Below are positions 9,962-18,859 of a stretch of DNA of 24,000 bases, one piece after another. This stretch comes from an uncultured Candidatus Bathyarchaeia archaeon (GTDB taxonomy: Archaea; Thermoproteota; Bathyarchaeia; Bathyarchaeales; Bathycorpusculaceae), in contig CAYGAG010000021.1 in the NCBI GenBank assembly GCA_964347765.1, positions 4,088 to 28,087 of the forward strand. Reading direction: 5' to 3'. Below the pieces are notes generated by a model. The model was given only the letters and a program-made list of their open reading frames with translations. It was not told the DNA's origin and did no database searches. Position 1 is the stretch's first letter. Each line of letters begins with the position of its first letter. Position numbers and translations under genes: made by a program.

Positions 9962-11467
9962 TTGAAATCTGTGTTCATTCTTGTTGATGGCGCTAGAGCA
10001 GATGTCTTTTACGAAATGTTAAGTCAAGGGCTTCTGCCGAATATTATGAAGCACGTGGCCAAGAGGGGTGCATCTGTAGAAAACGCCGTGACCGTTTTTC
10101 CGTCCACAACTGGACCGGCTCATGCGCCCTTCTTGACTGGAGCATTTCCTGGCCCACTGAACATGCCCGGCATCCGATGGTTTGACAGAAAGAAGAGCAG
10201 CTACAAGTATTACGGACGCTTATCTTGGTTTGAATTCGAACGTGATTATGTGGGGCCAGGCGCCTTCGCAATGAACACAGATATGAGTGACAAGATCAAG
10301 ACCATCTTTGAAAGGCTGAAGGGTTCCACAACAGCTGCAATCTTTGAGCCCATCACACGAGGGGCGAAATTCGTCTATCCTCCTCTTGCTAACGTCTTGG
10401 CTAAACTGCTTGCCCCCTTAAGAGCATTTACTTGGGAACACGCCGACGCCGTTGCAACACGCATATTTGAACTGGTCTACAGGTGCTCTGCCATGATGCG
10501 AGGTATGAAATTTCCTACGGAGCCTCCTGTCTTCTCCATAGTGTATATGCCGGGAGTGGATGAGGTCAGCCACGAACATGGGCCTCTCTCCCAGAACGTA
10601 CGACACGCAATGCAGAATGTGGATAACCAGGTTGGACGCATGGCTAGAACTCTTATTGACCTTGATCTTTACGAGGATACTTCCATTGTAATCAGCTCTG
10701 ATCATGGGCTTCGTCCCACTAGTTTGCACTTTGATCTTGCACAATTCATGAGTACAATTGGTTTGGATGTTCGTCGCTTTCCAGTGACATTCTTGCAAGG
10801 TTTTGGCGAGTTTGATGCCACGGTCGCTGTAAGCGGCAACGGCATGGCTCATATCTATCTAGCTGCGGAAGGCGCAGAGGAAAAAGCATTTCCGCTTCAA
10901 TATATAGCGCATAACTGGGAGCGAAAACCTACGTTGGAGGATCTTGAAAATTACAGGATTAGAAAAGGACGTGTAAACATTATAGACTTGGTTAGACACT
11001 TGTTACCAGTGCAACATGTCTTCGTCGCTGAAAACAGGTCAACTTTCCATGTCTACTCTAACGATGGACACGGCATCATAAGAAAAAAGGGACGAAATGA
11101 ATGCTCTTACGATGTGATTGAAGGTAAGGACCCTCTTGGTTACGCCGCTATCGTCGAAAATGGAAAGATCGCGTATGGCGAGTGGTTCGACGATCGCGAG
11201 TGGCTAGCAGCTACTTGTCAAGCTGAATTTCCAGACGCGCCTGTTCAGATTTCACAGATCTTTGAAAGCGAGCGGTCGGGAGACTTGATCGTGAACTCTC
11301 GGATGGGTTGGGATCTTATGCCTGAATTGTCACCGCATAAGGGTTCTCATGGCGGTCTTCATAAAACGGAAATGAAGATTCCACTTCTAATTGGCAATTC
11401 TAACTATGAGTACGGGCCAGATCAACCACTACGTACTCCAGATGTTCTAGACATACTTCTCGCCTAG
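9962..11467 (+). CDS. alkaline-phosphatase superfamily protein (type I phosphodiesterase / nucleotide pyrophosphatase-like)
   Basis: TTG start. ILVDGARADVF (metal Asp), FPSTTGPAHAPFLTG (Thr nucleophile motif), MPGVDEVSHEHG, VISSDHG and KGSHGG are the ordered metal and nucleophile motifs of the NPP/phosphodiesterase family. Confidence 0.75.
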   Translation: MKSVFILVDGARADVFYEMLSQGLLPNIMKHVAKRGASVENAVTVFPSTTGPAHAPFLTGAFPGPLNMPGIRWFDRKKSSYKYYGRLSWFEFERDYVGPGAFAMNTDMSDKIKTIFERLKGSTTAAIFEPITRGAKFVYPPLANVLAKLLAPLRAFTWEHADAVATRIFELVYRCSAMMRGMKFPTEPPVFSIVYMPGVDEVSHEHGPLSQNVRHAMQNVDNQVGRMARTLIDLDLYEDTSIVISSDHGLRPTSLHFDLAQFMSTIGLDVRRFPVTFLQGFGEFDATVAVSGNGMAHIYLAAEGAEEKAFPLQYIAHNWERKPTLEDLENYRIRKGRVNIIDLVRHLLPVQHVFVAENRSTFHVYSNDGHGIIRKKGRNECSYDVIEGKDPLGYAAIVENGKIAYGEWFDDREWLAATCQAEFPDAPVQISQIFESERSGDLIVNSRMGWDLMPELSPHKGSHGGLHKTEMKIPLLIGNSNYEYGPDQPLRTPDVLDILLA

Positions 11468-12162
11468 AAAAGATCTGAAGCCGTCACGAGCTAAGGCTAT
11501 GATAGCAGAGGTGAATATTCCGCGCTACAGTAAACCATAAACGAAGGCCTTCACGCGCTATCAGCTCTGCTACTAGCCAAGTTGCTTAGAATTAGCTCCA
11601 TCCCAAGTGTTTCAATCGGTGTCTTGTTCTTAGTTTTTCCCGATACTAACCACCCTCCAAACATGAAAATGGCGTTGAAAACTGGAAGATTTCGGTCAAA
11701 TCACGTTTGCCCCTCCAGGAACTTGTGGGCCTTATCCTCGCTTTGTCAGCATCCCTGATTGCGCACACAGTCCGTTCTCACCAATTTCTACTCGTACTAA
11801 ACTGTAGACTAAGCCATTTCATCGTTGACTTGCTTACAAGACCATGCCGACCGCTATTTCCTTTCTCCTATAAACAAGTAGACCCTAACCTTTATCGAGC
11901 GCGCGGATACGGTTTTCACGTTCATCCTAGGTCCAATGTACATGAAGGCGTTAGCATTCTGAGCGTAAGCAGCCTCGGCCTCTACATTGTTTGTTTGGAT
12001 TCCAATGCCTAAAAAGGAGCGTAGCAACCAGAAGACTAGATAACCGAAGTTTCTAAAATTTCCATAGCGTCGATCATGCAGTCAATCTTGGACAGGTCTT
12101 CTGAATGCAATATAGTACTGAGAAAGCTTATGAATGAATAGGAAGAGTGAAAAAGCAAATGG

Positions 12163-13833
12163 TTGGACTTAGAAATCAGATGTGGGTGGAAGAAAATCTT
12201 GTCTGACTCACCTTTCTCTGAAATTCTGGATGGGCTTTCATCTAGAATTGCTATTAAAGGTTCTATCTATGCAGCTTCGATCATACTGTTTTTCATGTTT
12301 ATTCTGTTACCTCCTATTCTGGGAGTAATTATCAGATGGAACACAATCGAAGAGGTTTTAGGTCAGCCGAGACTCATGTCTGACGCCTTAAATGCGGTCT
12401 ACGCATCTTTCGCTGTAGCTTTCTTCGTTTCGTTCATTGATATTGTGGCTGGTGTACCCATGGCTTGGATGGTTGCACGTGGGAAATCAAGATGGATCAA
12501 TGCGTTGGACACTTTTTCAGATATCCCCTTCATTGTGCCTACTTCCACTCTTGGGTACTCATTGTCTCTTTTCTGGAGTGGGTCGACCGGACTCTCGGCC
12601 TTTTTTGGCCGGCCTTTCGTCTCGCCGGGCTGGCTCCTCGTAGTATTGCTGCATTTTGCATTTTCATTTCCAGTTGTGGTCAGAGTGATGGTTGGAGCCT
12701 TGCTGGATTACGAATTGGAGTACGAACAAGCGGCAAGAACCTTGGGGGCTGCCCCGCTGACAGCCGCAAGAACTGTAACGTTTCCCATTTTAAAACACTC
12801 TGTGATAGCTTCTTTCACTTTGGCTTTTGCAAGATCACTCTCTGAAACAGGCGCAACAATGATAGTAGCAGGTCAGTTTGTTAATGGTCCAATATTCATC
12901 CAGAAGAATCTGGGTGTAGGGGGAGAAGGGCCGCTTGTCTTTGTTAGCTTGATTCTTCTGGGACTCTCTAGTCTGATATTCGTGACAATCCGTTTACTAG
13001 GTCCAAGGTTGGAGATGCCTATCAGGAGAGTCTGGCCTGAGACTGAGAGGAAGCTGAGCAGCTCTACAGTCTCTTCCTCTAGAAACGGAATAGCGCTGTC
13101 AATATTCTTGTTTTTGGTGCTTGTTCCCTCTCTTTTCGTCGCGCTGCCAGCGTTTGAAGCGATCTTCTCTGGAGTCTTGACGGACGCCTTAGGGGGGATT
13201 GGCGTTTGGAGCGATTATTGGCAAAGTATTTTCCTATCCTACTCTGTTGGGGCTGTTGTCACAGGAATAAACGTCATGATTGGTCTGCCTATGGCGATTA
13301 TAATAGCACGGAAAAAAATAGGGAGTGACCCCTCGACATTGTTGGACACGCTTGTTAACATCCCAATAATCGTCCCGTCTGTCGCTTTGGGGGCTTCCCT
13401 CTCAATTTTCTGGAAAGAGAATTTCGGATTCATACCTGATATTTGGCTGCTTATTTTCGCGCATCTATGTATTACGTATCCTTATTTTGTGAGATCAATG
13501 TCAGCTGCTGTAGAGAGAATAAGTGTCGAACTGGAAGAAGCCGGAAGAACGCTTGGAGCAAAACCATTGGCCGTGTTCAGAACGATAGTTTTTCCATTGA
13601 CCAAATACTCTATGTTTTCGGGTGCAATCATGATGTTTACGAGAAGCGTCAGCGAAACCGGTGCTACGTTGGTTGTCAGCAATCTTGTTACTGCCCCAGT
13701 TTTGCTGGTCCGATGGGTTAGAGAAGGAGTTCCAGAAATGGTTCTAGGCTTGGGGTGCGGCTTTCTTATCGTGTTTTCTTTCATAATCTTGCTAATTCTT
13801 AGACTCGTAGTGAGGAAGAGGGGAACATACTAA
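12163..13833 (+). CDS. ABC importer permease, fused double transmembrane domain
   Basis: 556 aa with about 12 TM helices. Two EAA loops: YEQAARTLGAAPLTAARTVTFPILK...ARSLSETGATMIVAG and LEEAGRTLGAKPLAVFRTIVFPLTK...TRSVSETGATLVVS. The SETGAT box resembles the GEFGA box of oxyanion-type permeases (CysTW/ModB/WtpB/Pst). TTG start is assumed. Confidence 0.8.
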   Translation: MDLEIRCGWKKILSDSPFSEILDGLSSRIAIKGSIYAASIILFFMFILLPPILGVIIRWNTIEEVLGQPRLMSDALNAVYASFAVAFFVSFIDIVAGVPMAWMVARGKSRWINALDTFSDIPFIVPTSTLGYSLSLFWSGSTGLSAFFGRPFVSPGWLLVVLLHFAFSFPVVVRVMVGALLDYELEYEQAARTLGAAPLTAARTVTFPILKHSVIASFTLAFARSLSETGATMIVAGQFVNGPIFIQKNLGVGGEGPLVFVSLILLGLSSLIFVTIRLLGPRLEMPIRRVWPETERKLSSSTVSSSRNGIALSIFLFLVLVPSLFVALPAFEAIFSGVLTDALGGIGVWSDYWQSIFLSYSVGAVVTGINVMIGLPMAIIIARKKIGSDPSTLLDTLVNIPIIVPSVALGASLSIFWKENFGFIPDIWLLIFAHLCITYPYFVRSMSAAVERISVELEEAGRTLGAKPLAVFRTIVFPLTKYSMFSGAIMMFTRSVSETGATLVVSNLVTAPVLLVRWVREGVPEMVLGLGCGFLIVFSFIILLILRLVVRKRGTY

Positions 13834-13903
13834 GATGTTTAGCAAATCGCTAATGTCTTGCACTCGATTCTATACAACTGGAAATCCAAGGAGATCAGAG
13901 TAA

Positions 13904-15007
13904 ATGCCTGTTGTACGTCTGGTGAACGTAAAAAAGAGCTTTGGGAAAATAGTGGCGGTTGACGGTGTCAGCCTCCACATCAAAAACAAAGAGTATTTCT
14001 CTTTGCTTGGTCCAAGCGGGTGTGGAAAGACGACCCTGTTGCGGCTCATTGCAGGGCTGGTTCAACCAGATGAAGGCGAGATCTACATTGGACAGAAGCT
14101 TGTAAATGATGTGCCTCCAGAAGATAGAAACATCGGATTTGTGTTCCAGACCTTCGCACTGTTTCCCCACATGGACGCGTGGAACAACGTCATCTATGGA
14201 CCCAGAGTGAAGGGTTTTGAAATGAGAAAAGCAGAGACCATAGGACATGAGGTGCTGGAGATGGTCAAGTTACATGAAAGGTTGAATGCCTTCCCAAATG
14301 AACTAAGTGGAGGAATGATGCAGAGAATAGCTGTGGCAAGAGCCCTAGCGGCCGGTGCAGAATTGCTGCTCCTTGACGAGCCCCTGGGACATTTGGACGC
14401 AAAGGTAAGAAACGAGTTAAGGTATGAGATAAGAAGGATGACAAAGGACTTGGGATTAACTGCAGTACACGTGACACATGATCAGAGCGAAGCCATGGCG
14501 ATTTCAGACAGAATTGCAGTTCTGAAAAAGGGAAAGATACTACAGACGGGAACCCCAACAGAGCTTTATCTGACTCCAAAGAACATTTTCGTGGCCCACT
14601 TCATCGGTGAATCGAACTTCCTAGAAGGATATGTTTCAAAGGTAAGCCCCGAGGGGTCAGCAATCGAACTTCGCGGAGAGGTGAAAGTTCAAGTAGGCCA
14701 GAAAGATTTCAAGAAAGGTGAAAGGGTGGTTCTAGCCGTAAGGCCTGAAACGTTCACCATTGCAGAGGGAAAGCGTGAAAAGGAAAACTCTGTTGTAGGC
14801 ACCATAGAACGGACTACCTTCGAAGGGACGAACATGCGTTACGAGATCAGACTTGAGAATCAAGATCTGGTTGTGGTTGTTAAACCGTCTCTGACTGAAG
14901 AATGGTTTAAGGTGGGAAGAACAGTAACAGTAAGTTTTTCTGCTGAAAAAGCTCATCTGTTCATATATCCTGAGTCAGGTTTGAGGGAGGAATTAGCAGT
15001 TGAGTAA
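13904..15007 (+). CDS. ABC transporter ATP-binding protein with a C-terminal TOBE-like domain (CysA/PotA/FbpC/ModC type)
   Basis: Walker A GPSGCGKTT, Q-loop FQTFALFPH, signature LSGGMMQR, Walker B LLLLDEP, H-loop VTHDQ. C-terminal beta-rich region (..VVGTIERTTFEGTNMRYEIRLENQDLVVVVKP..). AAGGAG lies about 10 nt upstream of the ATG. Confidence 0.9.
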   Translation: MPVVRLVNVKKSFGKIVAVDGVSLHIKNKEYFSLLGPSGCGKTTLLRLIAGLVQPDEGEIYIGQKLVNDVPPEDRNIGFVFQTFALFPHMDAWNNVIYGPRVKGFEMRKAETIGHEVLEMVKLHERLNAFPNELSGGMMQRIAVARALAAGAELLLLDEPLGHLDAKVRNELRYEIRRMTKDLGLTAVHVTHDQSEAMAISDRIAVLKKGKILQTGTPTELYLTPKNIFVAHFIGESNFLEGYVSKVSPEGSAIELRGEVKVQVGQKDFKKGERVVLAVRPETFTIAEGKREKENSVVGTIERTTFEGTNMRYEIRLENQDLVVVVKPSLTEEWFKVGRTVTVSFSAEKAHLFIYPESGLREELAVE

Positions 15008-15659
15008 TCTAATAAGATGGTTTGAGAAACGAAAGGAAATAAAAGCTTTGGAAACCGTGCAACGACACTTAGCATTGACTATAGGAATAGTCGAAGACCT
15101 GGAGAAGTCGATAGATGCATTAGCAAGAAACAATGAGGTGGAGATGGAGAGAAGTGTTCAAAGAGTGGCGAGCAGGGAGAAGGAAGCAGATAAGCTGCGC
15201 AGAAGAATTATGGACTATATTTCAAAAGGAGAGCTCCCACCCATCGACAGGGCAGATCTCATGGATCTTGTAAAAAAGGTAGATATGGTTGCTGACTGGA
15301 GTAGAGAGTCAACACGCATACTGAAGGCTATACCGATGACGCATCTCCCAGCCTTGGTTAAAGATGGATTAATGGAGATGGCTCAGGGGGTGAAGAGCTG
15401 TGCGATTTCCCTTCAGAAATGCATCAACAGAATGATCCTGAAACCCGAAGAAGCGCTTAAGGCGGCAGATGCAGTGGAGCTAGAGGAGGAGAAAGTCGAT
15501 GATATTCATGAAAGGGTTCGATTGTTGTTGGGCAAGATTGATTTACCTAGTGCCGGAATCACCGTCTTAGTCGCTCAACTCTTGGAGGCTCTGGAAATGG
15601 TTGGAGATTCATGTGAAGATGCAGTCGACCAAGTGAGGGTCATAGCTGTTCGAAGGTAA
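15000..15659 (+). CDS. DUF47 / PhoU-like (TIGR00153-type) protein, copy 1
   Basis: TTG start overlaps the ATPase stop by 8 nt and is preceded by GGGAGGA. ..REKEADKLRRRIMDYISKGELPPIDRADLMDLVKKVDMVADWSRES.. matches the DUF47 helical-bundle core. Confidence 0.8.
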   Translation: MSNLIRWFEKRKEIKALETVQRHLALTIGIVEDLEKSIDALARNNEVEMERSVQRVASREKEADKLRRRIMDYISKGELPPIDRADLMDLVKKVDMVADWSRESTRILKAIPMTHLPALVKDGLMEMAQGVKSCAISLQKCINRMILKPEEALKAADAVELEEEKVDDIHERVRLLLGKIDLPSAGITVLVAQLLEALEMVGDSCEDAVDQVRVIAVRR

Positions 15660-15791
15660 ACATTTTCTAAAAGAATCCAAGACCCCCCACCTGCGTGCGC
15701 AAACAGATTCTGAATCACACAACATATGAAGTACATCCACAACCTACATATCTCCGCGCGTCAGTCATGATGTTCGGACTTCCAAGAAGGG

Positions 15792-15798
15792 TTATATA
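15792..15798 (+). promoter_or_regulatory. candidate TATA box for DUF47 copy 2
   Basis: TTATATA lies about 39 nt upstream of TTG 15834. AGGAG (15821-15825) sits between them as an SD-like site. Confidence 0.4.
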
Positions 15799-15833
15799 CA
15801 AAACATGAAAAGTAACGTTGAGGAGACAAAGAC

Positions 15834-16502
15834 TTGGAAGGGAAAAGCTACAGATGGTTTGAAAAGCGACGAAGAACAAAAGCGTTAGATTTAGCCCAAG
15901 AACAGATAACCAAAGCGCTGGACACAGTGACCCTATTGCATAAAGCAGTGGAGAGTATTTCGAAAGCAAACAGAAAAGAGGCAATGCAACACATTGAGAA
16001 TCTTCTAGAGGCAGAGAAAGAAGTAGACAAGCTACGGACAGAAGTCTTCAAAGAGCTATCGAAAGGCGCAGCCCTGTTCGCAGATTACCGCGAAGACCTG
16101 ATGCACCTCGTGAAACGCCTTGACACACTTGCAGACCATGTGAAGGATGCAGCAAGATGCATCAAGATGCTGGCAGATTCCGAGATTCCAAAAGATCTTT
16201 GGCAGAAGACTGCTCACATGGTTTCCATTCTATTGGAATGTGCCAATGCCCTTCGCAGTAGCATCGAAAAGATCGCTGTAGATCCAATAGCAGCCATACG
16301 AGGAGCAAAAAAAGTAGAGCAGGTTGAAGGCGAGATTGATCAGGAATACCTTGAAACAAAATCTATGTTCATTGAATATGGAAAACAGATAGACAGTGGC
16401 TCCATGGTAATATTCGATGACTTGGTTGAATTCATTGAATACGCTGCCGACATATGTGCCGATACCGCAGACTATATCGTGATACTTGCAGGTACAGAAT
16501 AA
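15834..16502 (+). CDS. DUF47 / PhoU-like (TIGR00153-type) protein, copy 2
   Basis: A paralog of copy 1 (WFEKRRRTKALD.., ..AEKEVDKLRTEVFKELSKGAALFADYREDLMHLVKRLDTLADHVKDA..). TTG start. A 174-nt gap upstream contains a TTATATA box. Confidence 0.8.
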   Translation: MEGKSYRWFEKRRRTKALDLAQEQITKALDTVTLLHKAVESISKANRKEAMQHIENLLEAEKEVDKLRTEVFKELSKGAALFADYREDLMHLVKRLDTLADHVKDAARCIKMLADSEIPKDLWQKTAHMVSILLECANALRSSIEKIAVDPIAAIRGAKKVEQVEGEIDQEYLETKSMFIEYGKQIDSGSMVIFDDLVEFIEYAADICADTADYIVILAGTE

Positions 16503-16752: not shown

Positions 16753-16758
16753 ATAAAA
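16753..16758 (+). promoter_or_regulatory. candidate TATA-like box for the heliorhodopsin gene (leaderless geometry)
   Basis: cgATAAAAgt is centred about 28 nt upstream of ATG 16784, within a 260-nt gap after the preceding gene. Confidence 0.3.
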
Positions 16759-16783
16759 GTGCTTGGAAATAAAAGATAGCAGC

Positions 16784-17602
16784 ATGGATCGAAAAGAAAG
16801 ATTAGAAAATATAGCCAAATCACCGATTTCCTTCTCTTATCTAAGACGCTTCAACATCGGAGCAGGTTTTCTGCACTTGACCCAAGGAGTAGTAATGGTG
16901 ATTCTCGGACTGCTTAAAATCTATCCCAGAAACATATACACATTCTACCTTAAGTTTGAAAGAATAAGCCCAACTATTTTCCAGGTTGGGCCAGACCCTC
17001 AAGTCCTGTTTACAATAGACTATATAGGAGTCGTAGCAGCTTTGTTTCCTTTGATCTCCGCAATAGCACATTTCACCATTGCTTTTCCAAGAAATGAAAG
17101 CTACAATCAGAACCTCAAAAGAGCAATGAATCCATACAGGTGGTATGAATACGCCTTCTCAAGCTCAATAATGATAGTGTTAATCGCAACTTTCGTTGGC
17201 GTCTGGGATTTATGGTCCCTTGTCATGATATTCGTCCTGAACGCAATGATGATTATGTTAGGATACCTGATGGAAAATATCAATCAACACATCGAAAAGA
17301 CCGATTGGTCCTCCTTTGTCCTAGGATGCATTTCAGGCGGAATACCTTGGATAGTGCTGTATTCATATTTCGTTGCAGCCATACGCAGTGTGAATGCTGA
17401 CGTACCAACATTCGTGTACATGATACTTTTCATATACTTCATCTTGTTCAACGTCTTCGCGATAAACATGGTGCTGCAATACAAAGGCGTTGGACGCTGG
17501 AAAGACTACCTTTATGGCGAAAGAACCTACATAATGCTGAGTTTCATAGCTAAAAGCATTCTAGCCTGGCTAGTATTCATAGGAATCTTCGCACCATTCT
17601 AG
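16784..17602 (+). CDS. heliorhodopsin (retinal-binding 7-TM photoreceptor, inverted topology)
   Basis: Seven hydrophobic segments. Signature blocks: FNIGAGFLHLTQ, SAIAHFTIAF, NPYRWYEYAFSSSIMIVLIA (Glu codon 17147-17149), FVLNAMMIMLGYLME, GCISGGIPWIV, VPTFVYMI, and FNVFAINMVLQYKGVGRWKDYLYGERTYIMLSFIAKSILAW (Lys codon 17552-17554). I prefer ATG 16784 to the track's TTG 16763. Confidence 0.9.
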   Translation: MDRKERLENIAKSPISFSYLRRFNIGAGFLHLTQGVVMVILGLLKIYPRNIYTFYLKFERISPTIFQVGPDPQVLFTIDYIGVVAALFPLISAIAHFTIAFPRNESYNQNLKRAMNPYRWYEYAFSSSIMIVLIATFVGVWDLWSLVMIFVLNAMMIMLGYLMENINQHIEKTDWSSFVLGCISGGIPWIVLYSYFVAAIRSVNADVPTFVYMILFIYFILFNVFAINMVLQYKGVGRWKDYLYGERTYIMLSFIAKSILAWLVFIGIFAPF

Positions 17603-17690: not shown

Positions 17691-18364
17691 CTAAAACGTC
17701 AGCAGCCAAGGTGCAAGAAATCTCGAGAGAAGCAGGATTGCAAAAGAGAACGAAGGCACAGTGACGTTATCATCAATACTGTAGAATTCGAAGTGCTCTA
17801 CAACAGATGCAACACCTCCAGCTGCAATTCCCGCAAATCCAAGCATTGCACCTACAGTCATGGAAAACGCGGCCATAGCCACGTTTCCCCACCAAGGCTT
17901 TGCCCTTTTTCTATAAAGATGATTTCTAACGATGCCTGTGACAGCATCACCAACTGACATGAAGAGAACGGGCAGGACCCGATTAGGAAGTCTCCTTCGG
18001 ACACTAACCAGCCTAGAGTGATCACAATTCCCCACATCATAGTGAATGTTACTTCATACATGTTTTCCGTTGTTTGAAACCAATACATCAATCTTTCAGT
18101 CTTGTGAGGAATGTAGGTGAAGATTGACAGTAATATAGACATCACCAAAGGAAAAAACGAAGTTGAAAAGAGATACGGAACCGCAGAAGCACAAACTCCG
18201 CCTGCAAAAATGTGAATGACCTTGCGATTATAGTAAACCGCAACATTATCTTCGACGCCTCGGCTTTTCATCCAAACAAACAGTCTCCTTGTGAGAATTA
18301 AGGTCACAAAGATAACCCATAGGAGAAGAAGCACAGCTGCGACTAGCTCGTATACCGCTATCAT
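17691..18364 (-). pseudogene. dolichol/phytol kinase-like (CTP-dependent polyprenol kinase / cytidylyltransferase family) membrane protein, interrupted by a shift to the -1 frame
   Basis: Upstream ORF 17858-18364 gives ..YYNRKVIHIFAGGV...MMWGIVITLGWLVS... The -1 ORF 17691-18035 gives ..VLPVLFMSVGDAVTGIVRNHLYRKRAKPWWGNVAMAAFSMTVGAML...EHFEFYSIDDNVTVP... These are the RK..H, GD..A..vG....K.weG..AM and E....DDN..vP blocks of this family. Only the joined product of about 225 aa is complete. Confidence 0.6.
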
Positions 18365-18424: not shown

Positions 18425-18859
18425 TCAAGACGTTTCTTTCTCGATCATCGCTGCAATTTTCAGAGCAATTTCTATGTTCTTTTCAAGTTCATCCATCTCC
18501 GGCGAGACATTCCTGTAAAACTCTATCGTTCCTCGGTCAACTGTTTTTAACAGAATCAGATTGGTAGGGTAGAAATAATGACCAAACACATCTTTGCTTC
18601 GCAATGATTCTTCCTGCGATCCAGAAGATTGCCTGACATGTATTTGGGCAAAGACTACTCTGCCTCCGTGCTTTTCTTCAACTCTTTTTGCCAGCTCACT
18701 AAGTTTCGGCTTCTGTTCTTGGCACCCAAGGCATCCATCGCGAGTAACGGCAACAACGTAGACTTTTCCAAAGTCATGAGCCAAATAGTCTAGATGAGGT
18801 TCTCCTGTTTCCCATATCTTCTTCTCAAGTGTGGTGAATTCGATCGTGTTGATTGGCAT
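18425..18859 (-). CDS. thioredoxin-fold protein
   Basis: 144 aa. ..VYVVAVTRDGCLGCQEQKPKLSELA.. is a CxxC active site in the thioredoxin-type beta-alpha context. Confidence 0.55.
   Translation of the reverse strand: MPINTIEFTTLEKKIWETGEPHLDYLAHDFGKVYVVAVTRDGCLGCQEQKPKLSELAKRVEEKHGGRVVFAQIHVRQSSGSQEESLRSKDVFGHYFYPTNLILLKTVDRGTIEFYRNVSPEMDELEKNIEIALKIAAMIEKETS

Follow-up and report, generated by a model that had tools for sequence, protein, structure and literature searches.

A bathyarchaeial gene deposited as a hypothetical protein encodes an intact heliorhodopsin, probably a retinal-binding light switch

The locus studied here raises the question of what is encoded by an open reading frame (ORF) at positions 16784-17602 of an archaeal contig, and what its product could do in its host. 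The window, that is, the whole stretch of 24,000 nucleotides that was analysed, comes from a member of the Bathyarchaeia. The protein is deposited as NIO38060.1 under the label 'hypothetical protein', which bears out the remark in the preliminary description of this DNA that pipelines often label such genes as hypothetical. Its deposited source is the Candidatus Bathyarchaeota MAG CS4-C051 (WVZV01000421.1), which is 72% complete and originates from 1-m marine sediment cores of the Gulf of Khambhat; rhodopsins are not mentioned in the paper describing this MAG. From the sequence alone, the gene product had been proposed to be a heliorhodopsin (HeR). According to the literature, HeRs are limited to monoderm (single-membrane) hosts, and the contig is assigned to a Candidatus Bathyarchaeota MAG. 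Bathyarchaeotal HeRs were published in 2020 in the Bathy-6 and Bathy-8 groups (Pan et al. 2020, PMC7110647).

The HeR coding sequence (16784..17602, + strand) opens with an ATG at 16784 and encodes 272 aa followed by a TAG stop codon ending at 17602. All the peptide blocks listed in the preliminary description (FNIGAGFLHLTQ, SAIAHFTIAF, NPYRWYEYAFSSSIMIVLIA and YGERTYIMLSFIAKSILAW) are present in its translation. A start at the TTG at 16763, giving a protein of 279 aa, was considered and rejected. We retained the ATG because homologs are 270-274 aa long and because a TATA-like ATAAAA box, seen by inspection of the sequence, lies 31 nt upstream of it (16753..16758, + strand). The TTG is also disfavoured by its position between two TATA-like ATAAAA boxes close upstream of the ATG. 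The box at 16753..16758 falls inside a 281-bp gap located 3' of the upstream DUF47 gene, and could serve as an archaeal promoter of the gene itself, in which case the mRNA would be leaderless or have a short leader. The gene downstream of the HeR gene is convergent. From the 281-bp gap, the TATA-like box and the convergent downstream gene, the HeR gene is apparently transcribed alone, as a monocistronic unit under a promoter of its own. Minus-strand ORFs at 17691-18364 were considered as a frameshifted CTP-transferase/dolichol-kinase-like gene, a reading that was dropped after Pfam and NCBIfam searches returned nothing, even with a hand-fused sequence of 224 aa.

Profile searches assigned the protein to the HeR family over its full length. 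It scored 308.3 bits with the Pfam Heliorhodopsin family (PF18761; cutoff 26.7, E 4e-92, profile positions 1-241 of 242), and 338.8 bits with the NCBIfam equivalog NF038020 "heliorhodopsin HeR" (cutoff 100, positions 1-244 of 244). Heliorhodopsin was the sole Pfam family found at E <=1 in the 272-aa protein. Among studied HeRs, TaHeR was matched with an E value of 2e-55 and 44% identity, and 48C12 with an E value of 4e-45 and 41% identity. The similarity to the HeR family is thus far beyond chance, as the Pfam and TaHeR E values indicate, and the heliorhodopsin assignment made earlier holds, with full-length matches to both HeR models at scores far above their cutoffs. The ORF is a genuine and intact heliorhodopsin gene encoding a full-length member of the family. 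The closest HeRs are all archaeal, and a search of species-representative genomes gave 554 relatives. Homologs 71-74% identical to the protein (P0045 and P0091) already carry the name 'heliorhodopsin HeR [Candidatus Bathyarchaeota archaeon]'. The family has been described before in this lineage, counts thousands of homologs and has dedicated curated HMMs, and the protein is an ordinary, textbook member of a group that is already known.

Functional residues were read from phmmer and MAFFT alignments with 48C12 and TaHeR, and their roles, together with the set of conserved polar and charged residues, were taken from PMC7049168. The 17 polar or charged residues that this paper gives as conserved in HeRs are all present, in addition to the retinal lysine, and the Lys, Glu, His and Ser columns are invariant among 29 close homologs. 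The lysine forming the Schiff base with retinal is K257 (AAA, 17552-17554), in the TM7 segment S253-F254-I255-A256-K257 (17540..17554, + strand); the Lys of SFIAKS, earlier designated as the Schiff-base residue, shares its column with K241 in 48C12 and K238 in TaHeR and is invariant in the 29 homologs. Its counterion is E122 (GAA, 17147-17149), which falls in the column of E107 (48C12) and E108 (TaHeR), as had been expected of the proposed counterion. Both codons had been placed exactly. E122 belongs to the TM3 core motif R119-W120-Y121-E122-Y123-A124-F125-S126 (17138..17161, + strand), in which R119 and S126 correspond to R104 and S111 of 48C12. The two conserved histidines announced for TM1 and TM2 are His31 (CAC, 16874..16876), equivalent to His23 of both 48C12 and TaHeR, and His96 (CAT, 17069..17071), equivalent to His80 of 48C12 and His82 of TaHeR; both are invariant in the homologs. 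Also in TM2, Ser92 (TCC, 17057..17059) corresponds to Ser76 of 48C12, whose role is to stabilise the counterion (PMC7049168).

The remaining functional positions follow the same pattern. Glu164 (GAA, 17273..17275), at the cytoplasmic end of TM4, corresponds to Glu149 of 48C12 and Glu150 of TaHeR, and Glu246 (GAA, 17519..17521), in the Schiff-base cavity, to Glu230 of 48C12 and Glu227 of TaHeR. The polar network is complete, with H31, H96, N24, Y107, N116, R119, W120, Y123, E164, M229, Q232, Y242 and E246 as the counterparts of H23, H80, N16, Y92, N101, R104, W105, Y108, E149, Q/M213, Q216, Y226 and E230 of 48C12, respectively. Position 213 of 48C12 is a Met (M229) here, as in TaHeR, and Met at this position is stated to be a common HeR variant (PMC7049168). 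In the TM5 segment F178...C182...G185...P188-W189 (17315..17350, + strand), F178, C182 and G185 correspond to positions 162, 166 and 169 of 48C12, which form one side of the lateral fenestration, and P188 is the helix-E proline (P172 of 48C12). The other side of the fenestration is formed by the TM6 segment F222-N223-V224-F225-A226 (17447..17461, + strand), equivalent to the 48C12 region with F206, N207 and A210.

The same residues bear on whether the protein could be a type-1 (bacteriorhodopsin-like) rhodopsin. It has a single Glu counterion in TM3 (E122), and a serine, S253 (S237 of 48C12, S234 of TaHeR; invariant in the 29 homologs), replaces the second type-1 Asp. The Asp85/Asp212-type counterion pair is therefore absent, Glu and Ser occupying both Asp positions. 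No type-1 Pfam profile was matched at E <=1, and type-1 structures match only remotely (E >=5e-3, 10-16% identity), so that membership in this family was rejected.

An AlphaFold2 model built from 30 close homologs contained seven helices, with moderate confidence only (pLDDT 64, pTM 0.60), which we consider adequate for assigning the fold. A Foldseek search with this model returned HeR structures for all of the top 10 matches (E 2e-16 to 1e-11, TM 0.65-0.78), and type-1 rhodopsins came next. A beta-hairpin had been announced in the long loop between TM1 and TM2 (AB loop), and it is present in the predicted HeR fold, at residues 49-78 (16928..17017, + strand), as DSSP strands 49-62 and 65-78 with a local pLDDT of about 70-79. 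With the N-terminus placed inside, as claimed earlier, the loops predicted to be cytoplasmic contain 10 Lys and Arg residues, compared with four in those predicted to be extracellular. This charge bias fits a putative inverted topology, in agreement with homology to HeRs of determined orientation. The extracellular halves of the helices carry no charged residue except R201, at the membrane edge. dN/dS values against four relatives ranged from 0.07 to 0.14, and the gene is under purifying selection.

The best solved relative is TaHeR of Thermoplasmatales archaeon SG8-52-1 (PDB 6IS6, 7U55 and 7CLJ), which is 44% identical over an alignment of 247 residues and is also the best match in fold (TM 0.71-0.78). 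The two proteins have in common, in TaHeR numbering, H23, H82, E108, K238, S78, S112, S234, E150, E227 and R105, as well as an archaeal host and the Met at the Gln213 position. The window HeR differs from TaHeR by a longer AB loop, an N-terminal extension of about 8 residues, and several substitutions (N153 versus T139, I157 versus N143, Y195 versus P181, Y218 versus I199, P89 versus L75 and L263 versus Q244); the host phyla also differ, being Bathyarchaeia for the window HeR and Thermoplasmatota for TaHeR. With 48C12, the family prototype described in 2018 (PDB 6SU3 and 6UH3; 41% identity), all Schiff-base, cavity and Glu149-region residues are shared, together with P172/W173 and the fenestration residues. 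Differences from 48C12 comprise Q213 to M229, S201 to I217, Q247 to L263, L202 to Y218 and L73 to P89. Pro40 of the 48C12 AB loop is aligned with N50, a proline being found 2 residues upstream, and 48C12 has a bacterial (actinobacterial) host, unlike the window HeR. The HeRs of Bathy-6 and Bathy-8 (PMC7110647) are of the same family and phylum, and raise the same questions about a retinal pathway with missing steps and about life in dark sediment; in contrast to the named Bathyarchaeota HeRs, the window protein carries the label of a hypothetical protein.

We consider that the gene encodes a functional Bathyarchaeia HeR that would bind retinal, cycle slowly without transporting ions and probably act as a light switch regulating a partner, a reading to which we give a probability of roughly 85%. 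By analogy with the studied relatives 48C12, TaHeR and Cv06, from which the functional steps are inferred, all-trans retinal would be bound as a protonated Schiff base on K257 and isomerised by green light. The Schiff-base proton would then pass to a water-filled cytoplasmic cavity lined by H31, H96, E122, E246, N116 and Y107, from which it would not be released, and an O state lasting seconds would follow. No ion transport would be expected, because the extracellular half is hydrophobic, and 48C12, TaHeR and Cv06 show no transport according to the literature. The long-lived state would most probably be a light switch that touches a partner protein directly and thereby alters its activity; other HeRs regulate glutamine synthetase, a photolyase and an ABC exporter by contact (PMC11109279). 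Chromophore binding, spectrum, photocycle and non-transport are all assigned here by homology.

Proton transport has been demonstrated for some viral HeRs according to the literature, and the window HeR could be imagined as an ion transporter driven or gated by light, in the manner of the viral V2HeR3. However, the transporting HeRs form a divergent, mostly viral subfamily 2, without the fenestration motif and with altered pocket residues, whereas the standard motif (F178, C182, G185, F222, N223 and A226) is found here together with P188. The extracellular half has no charged residue bar the one at the membrane edge, and TaHeR, the closest studied relative, is non-transporting. A transport function is exceedingly improbable.

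The fenestration bears on another explanation, in which the protein would be a two-antenna light harvester binding an exogenous xanthophyll at this site, with an energetic rather than sensory role. Whether HeRs are sensory or regulatory in general is still debated, and a preprint of 2025 makes the case that these proteins harvest light with the help of carotenoids (10.1101/2025.11.27.691015). The fenestration and carotenoid site are defined there by aromatic residues at positions 162 and 206 of 48C12, non-bulky residues at 166 and 210, Gly169 and Asn207. All six proposed positions have suitable residues in the window HeR (F178, F222, C182, A226, G185 and N223, conserved in 29 homologs). Nevertheless, the hypothesis comes from a preprint resting on docking and sequence motifs, and HeRs of this type have no known energy-conserving output such as an ion gradient. 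Carotenoid binding would also be compatible with a sensory role, and little light reaches the sediment habitat. We regard an energetic antenna role as very unlikely.

The supply of retinal was the other point raised by the preliminary description, which had stated that retinal-biosynthesis genes are absent from the window. This holds across the ORFs scanned with Pfam: no carotenoid or retinal family was found in the window in any ORF of at least 100 aa or in four of the nine gap ORFs (61, 73, 84 and 101 aa; the other five measure 45-58 aa). Retinal must be supplied either by the rest of the genome or by the surroundings of the cell. No Bathyarchaeotal MAG has the whole pathway to retinal, and the puzzle of this missing pathway in dark sediment has already been raised for the Bathyarchaeota (PMC7110647). 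Most microbes with HeR as their only rhodopsin are likewise without de novo retinal synthesis according to the literature. Light is scarce in 1-m sediment cores.

The source in sediment cores, the window free of retinal genes, the incomplete pathway of Bathyarchaeotal MAGs (PMC7110647) and the lack of de novo retinal synthesis in most HeR-only microbes would all suit a gene retained for a function independent of light or of retinal, such as a structural or lipid-related one, in a dark-living host unable to make retinal. Yet purifying selection is strong and leaves no variation in the Schiff-base Lys, the counterion Glu or any part of the retinal-pocket and cavity network, which is hard to explain without a chromophore, and none of the 29 homologs is a Lys-less variant. 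In addition, Bathyarchaeotal HeR genes are known to be transcribed in mangrove sediment under surface influence (PMC7110647). A retinal-free role has almost no probability in our view.

We then considered the gene environment for candidate partners of the proposed switch. Upstream of the HeR gene, and on the same strand, lie in this order genes for an ABC permease (12163-13833), an ABC ATPase (13904-15007), a DUF47 protein (15000-15659) and a second DUF47 protein (DUF47b, 15834-16502), the two DUF47 genes forming with the transporter an importer-type ABC and DUF47/PhoU-like module. This arrangement could suggest that HeR is a light-dependent regulator of the module, as OcHeR is with OmrDE, and there is a published precedent of a HeR regulating an ABC transporter (PMC11109279). 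The likeness to OcHeR and its ABC multidrug exporter consists in a HeR lying near same-strand ABC transporter genes. The published case, however, is a fused TMD-NBD exporter, while the system here is of the importer type with separate permease and ATPase; two DUF47 genes intervene, and the 281-bp gap with its TATA-like box parts the HeR gene from DUF47b. Conservation of the adjacency was assessed with tblastn, by comparing each of the 24 proteins of the window with 80 related HeR loci that included flanks no longer than 10 kb. The permease, both DUF47 genes and the phosphodiesterase were beside HeR in none of the 80 related genomes within 10 kb, including a genome whose HeR is 90% identical and from which the flanking genes of the window are absent too. 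The lone DUF47 exception was a weak match about 9 kb from HeR (L052), and generic ABC-ATPase similarity occurred at scattered positions only. A single locus had a match to CofE (L047), and scattered weak matches were found for the methyltransferase, HTH regulator, NosD-like, CDP-OH transferase and aminotransferase proteins. As the adjacency is unshared across the 80 loci, a functional linkage of HeR to the upstream ABC/DUF47 genes was rejected, and a regulator of this module is highly improbable. The locus likewise departs from an OcHeR-OmrDE-type pair in that it lacks a single operon, recurrence and a fused TMD-NBD exporter. The HeR neighbourhood of the window is idiosyncratic, unlike any of the 80 related loci, and gives no readable partner. 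tRNA and Rfam scans of the window returned nothing.

Other genes recur beside HeR in the related genomes. A gene of the SOUL haem-binding family was found in the fetched HeR flank in 32 of the 80, lying within 500 bp in 19 of them, and is usually divergently transcribed. The genomes with SOUL beside HeR include Bathyarchaeia and seven of the nine labelled Methanobacteriaceae, and their other neighbours vary. A Pyridox_ox_2 gene was located near HeR in 23 of the 80 genomes, including one with a 90%-identical HeR. The pairing with SOUL is outside the ten published HeR neighbour groups (PMC11109279), and a literature search for a link between HeR and SOUL found no relevant paper. The archaeal HeR clade might signal to a small soluble tetrapyrrole- or flavin-binding partner, SOUL and/or a PNPOx-like split-barrel protein, giving light-dependent control of haem or porphyrin handling and so protection from photosensitised damage, the partner of the window HeR being encoded elsewhere in the incomplete genome; we put this forward as a doubtful, speculative possibility. 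Adjacency is no evidence of interaction, and neither gene lies in the window, where tblastn (E <0.05) detected no SOUL, PNPOx2, Abhydrolase_5 or DUF6512 gene.

This protein is one more HeR among thousands and matters little alone, the sole correction needed being the public 'hypothetical protein' label of NIO38060.1. It illustrates a recognised question, namely why purifying selection strongly maintains an intact light sensor in sediment archaea without a visible retinal pathway. It also illustrates a second one, what HeRs signal to. The window is uninformative on this target because its gene neighbourhood is idiosyncratic, and the only lead that might bear on it comes from the SOUL and PNPOx genes that recur beside HeR in related genomes.

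The product of the gene at 16784-17602 (+) matched a single Pfam family, PF18761 Heliorhodopsin (308.3 bits, E 4e-92), over profile positions 1-241 of 242, and scored 338.8 bits against the NCBIfam equivalog NF038020 “heliorhodopsin HeR” (cutoff 100). Both profiles support the identity proposed in the preliminary description, that of an intact heliorhodopsin (HeR). Solved structures matched by sequence were heliorhodopsins only, namely TaHeR from Thermoplasmatales archaeon SG8-52-1 (6IS6, E 1.9e-55), the family prototype 48C12 (6SU3, E 4.4e-45) and the eukaryotic Cv06 (9VFC, E 8e-42). Aligned with MAFFT, the window HeR shared 44% identity with TaHeR and 41% with 48C12. All four peptide blocks quoted in the preliminary description were found in the translation, and its two codons were placed exactly (GAA 17147-17149 for Glu122, AAA 17552-17554 for Lys257).

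The polar and charged residues conserved in HeRs were tabulated by Kovalev et al. 2020 (PMC7049168). In 48C12 numbering, with the window counterpart in brackets, these are Ser237 (S253), Glu107 (E122), Ser111 (S126), Ser76 (S92), His23 (H31), His80 (H96), Asn101 (N116), Tyr108 (Y123), Asn16 (N24), Glu230 (E246), Arg104 (R119), Tyr92 (Y107), Glu149 (E164), Gln216 (Q232), Tyr226 (Y242), Trp105 (W120) and Gln213 (M229). Judged from the alignment, the whole set is present, position 213 being Met, which is a frequent variant there (PMC7049168) and is shared with TaHeR. K257 aligns with K241 of 48C12 and K238 of TaHeR; together with E122, H31 and H96, it occupies the Lys, Glu and His columns predicted earlier. 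The helix-E Pro-Trp is retained (P188-W189), and the conserved HeR columns are invariant across 29 close homologs. Clade-specific differences are minor. The 48C12 Pro40 column holds N50, with a Pro two residues upstream, while Leu73, Ser201, Leu202 and Gln247 are replaced by P89 (17048-17050), I217 (17432-17434), Y218 (17435-17437) and L263 (17570-17572), respectively. The last four are kept in 27-29 of the 29 close homologs (span 17045-17572) and may influence spectral tuning or helix packing. Cv06 also has Tyr at the Leu202 position, where this residue has been suggested to blue-shift absorption.

An AlphaFold2 model built with 30 close homologs as input had moderate confidence (pLDDT 64, pTM 0.60) and contained seven helices (17-44, 81-100, 117-138, 143-169, 175-202, 209-234 and 245-269). 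At this confidence (pLDDT 64), the TM1-TM2 loop forms the anticipated beta-hairpin, with strands 49-62 and 65-78. The best Foldseek PDB match of the model was TaHeR (E 2e-16, TM 0.71-0.78); at E about 1e-12 came 48C12 and a HeR bound to a nanobody, and matches to type-1 rhodopsins were limited to E 5e-3 or worse with 10-16% identity. Assuming that the N-terminus is inside, as previously suggested, cytoplasmic segments carry 10 Lys+Arg and extracellular segments 4, a charge bias that fits the inverted HeR topology. The extracellular helix halves lack charged residues, except for R201 at the membrane edge, which on sequence grounds is the pattern of non-transporting HeRs.

The ORF is full length, running from ATG 16784 to a TAG stop ending at 17602 (272 aa) with no internal stops. 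Translation from an in-frame TTG (16763) would lengthen the protein by seven residues; this start is disfavoured relative to the ATG because homologs are 270-274 aa long and because a TATA-like box, ATAAAA, precedes the ATG by 31 nt. This spacing is that expected of an archaeal promoter and would yield a leaderless or short-leader mRNA. Nei-Gojobori dN/dS values against orthologs at four related loci were 0.074 (L002), 0.114 (L003), 0.118 (L005) and 0.144 (L006), and the gene is therefore under strong purifying selection.

An identical protein, NIO38060.1, is encoded on NCBI contig WVZV01000421.1 (assembly GCA_011772235.1) and deposited as “hypothetical protein GTO27_10220”, which bears out the earlier remark that pipelines often call HeRs hypothetical; the current NCBIfam equivalog would rename it heliorhodopsin HeR. 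WVZV00000000 is the MAG “Candidatus Bathyarchaeota archaeon CS4-C051”, which spans 2.26 Mb in 578 contigs and has 72% completeness and 6% contamination. It was recovered from one-metre cores of sediment in the Gulfs of Kathiawar, and the paper describing it makes no mention of rhodopsins (PMC8319310). At E 1e-20 or better, 3466 homologs are present in the protein database, the closest being 91% identical, and some with 71-74% identity already bear the name “heliorhodopsin HeR [Candidatus Bathyarchaeota archaeon]”. Among species-representative genomes, 554 relatives were found; the best 80 are mostly from Bathyarchaeia, some being labelled Methanobacteriaceae or Hadarchaeota. Two genomes carry two HeR paralogs each (L036 and L037 in SAG AM-311-L02; L013 and L040 in MAG 8_1_Jan_SF_Bin48). 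Transcribed heliorhodopsins of Bathy-6 and Bathy-8 were reported by Pan et al. 2020, who found the retinal pathway incomplete and discussed a light sensor in sediment dwellers as a paradox (PMC7110647). The assignment is correct and, given the named homologs, the 554 relatives and the published Bathyarchaeota HeRs, already known in kind: the window HeR belongs to a curated family as an ordinary member, and HeRs of its lineage have been published.

Upstream on the same strand, a gene of the type-I phosphodiesterase family (9962-11467) is followed by a fused double-domain ABC permease (12163-13833), a TOBE_2-containing ABC ATPase (13904-15007) and a tandem pair of PhoU_div/DUF47 genes (15000-15659 and 15834-16502). 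No substrate-binding-protein gene is visible in this run (9962-16502), and the NCBIfam models that it most resembles (PhnT2, PotA, WtpB, ModB) all scored below their cutoffs. HeR modulation of an ABC exporter has been shown elsewhere (PMC11109279), which could suggest a functional link between the window HeR and the adjacent ABC/DUF47 genes. However, the transporter beside it has an importer-type architecture, a 281-bp gap separates HeR from the upstream gene, and the TATA-like box precedes HeR. Moreover, the adjacency is not conserved: the permease, DUF47, phosphodiesterase and downstream genes were found in the fetched flanks (up to 10 kb) of none of 80 related loci, among them L002, whose HeR is 90% identical; one weak DUF47 match about 9 kb away is the exception. 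The only other matches were generic, scattered ABC-ATPase similarities. On these grounds such a link is very improbable.

Downstream and convergent to HeR are two overlapping ORFs (17691-18364, -; 168 and 114 aa, overlap 178 nt) for an unclassified hydrophobic membrane protein; the two resemble a single gene interrupted by a frameshift or an assembly error and gave no Pfam or NCBIfam match, even when fused by hand. A weakly thioredoxin-like ORF (18425-18859), also convergent, follows; farther downstream are a radical-SAM gene, an MFS transporter, an aminotransferase and an F420 ligase. Near the window start, a 132-aa ORF (30-428, +) matches only the C-terminal part of APH phosphotransferases (profile positions 170-215 of 239) and is probably truncated by the window edge. 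A 622-bp gap contains two adjacent small ORFs (2369-2554 and 2584-2805, +; 61 and 73 aa), the first with weak PNPOx_N or Pyridox_ox_2 likeness (E 0.01-0.05, below cutoffs); the pair may represent a split-barrel flavoprotein gene that has been disrupted. Scanning the window for tRNAs and Rfam families gave no match.

We clustered the four genes on each side of HeR in the 80 related loci. One neighbour dominated, a protein of ~170 aa belonging to the Pfam SOUL haem-binding family (PF04832, E 1.6e-41). By tblastn, 32 of the 80 loci (for example L020, at 497-1018, L016, L010, L053 and L079) have its gene in the fetched flank, and 19 have it within 500 bp of HeR, 12 of these divergent upstream. Of the SOUL-bearing loci, 24 were labelled Bathyarchaeia or Thermoproteota, and seven of the nine loci labelled Methanobacteriaceae carried the gene. 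A Pyridox_ox_2 (PF12900) gene occurs near HeR in 23 of the 80 loci, including L002 (231 bp upstream, divergent), and one or other gene is present at 43. The remaining neighbours vary among loci, which argues that the adjacency is selected and not simply inherited as synteny. SOUL is absent from the ten published groups of HeR neighbours (PMC11109279), and our full-text literature search found no paper on a HeR-SOUL link. Since neither gene is present in the window (tblastn, E <0.05), this lead concerns the clade, not the window locus.

Beyond the identity, intact active-site network, fold, topology bias and selection observed here, the mechanism is drawn from 48C12, TaHeR and Cv06. By analogy, all-trans retinal would form a protonated Schiff base on K257; E122 would serve as its counterion, with S92, S126 and S253 providing stabilisation. 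Light would isomerise the retinal, and the proton would pass, without release, to a water cluster in a cytoplasmic cavity lined by H31, H96, N116, Y107, Y123 and E246; an O state lasting seconds would follow, without ion transport. As noted previously, the window appears devoid of retinal-biosynthesis genes: ORFs of at least 100 aa and four gap ORFs gave no Pfam match to carotenoid or retinal families. The retinal must come from genes outside the window or from uptake; de novo retinal synthesis is absent from most HeR-only microbes. An antenna carotenoid is possible, because every position of the lateral-fenestration/carotenoid-site motif proposed in a 2025 preprint (10.1101/2025.11.27.691015) is satisfied (F178, C182, G185, F222, N223 and A226). 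As its output, this HeR would most likely regulate a partner protein through contact, in a light-dependent manner, as demonstrated for other HeRs with glutamine synthetase, photolyase and the multidrug exporter OmrDE (PMC11109279), and in agreement with the view of HeRs as a “generalised light switch”.
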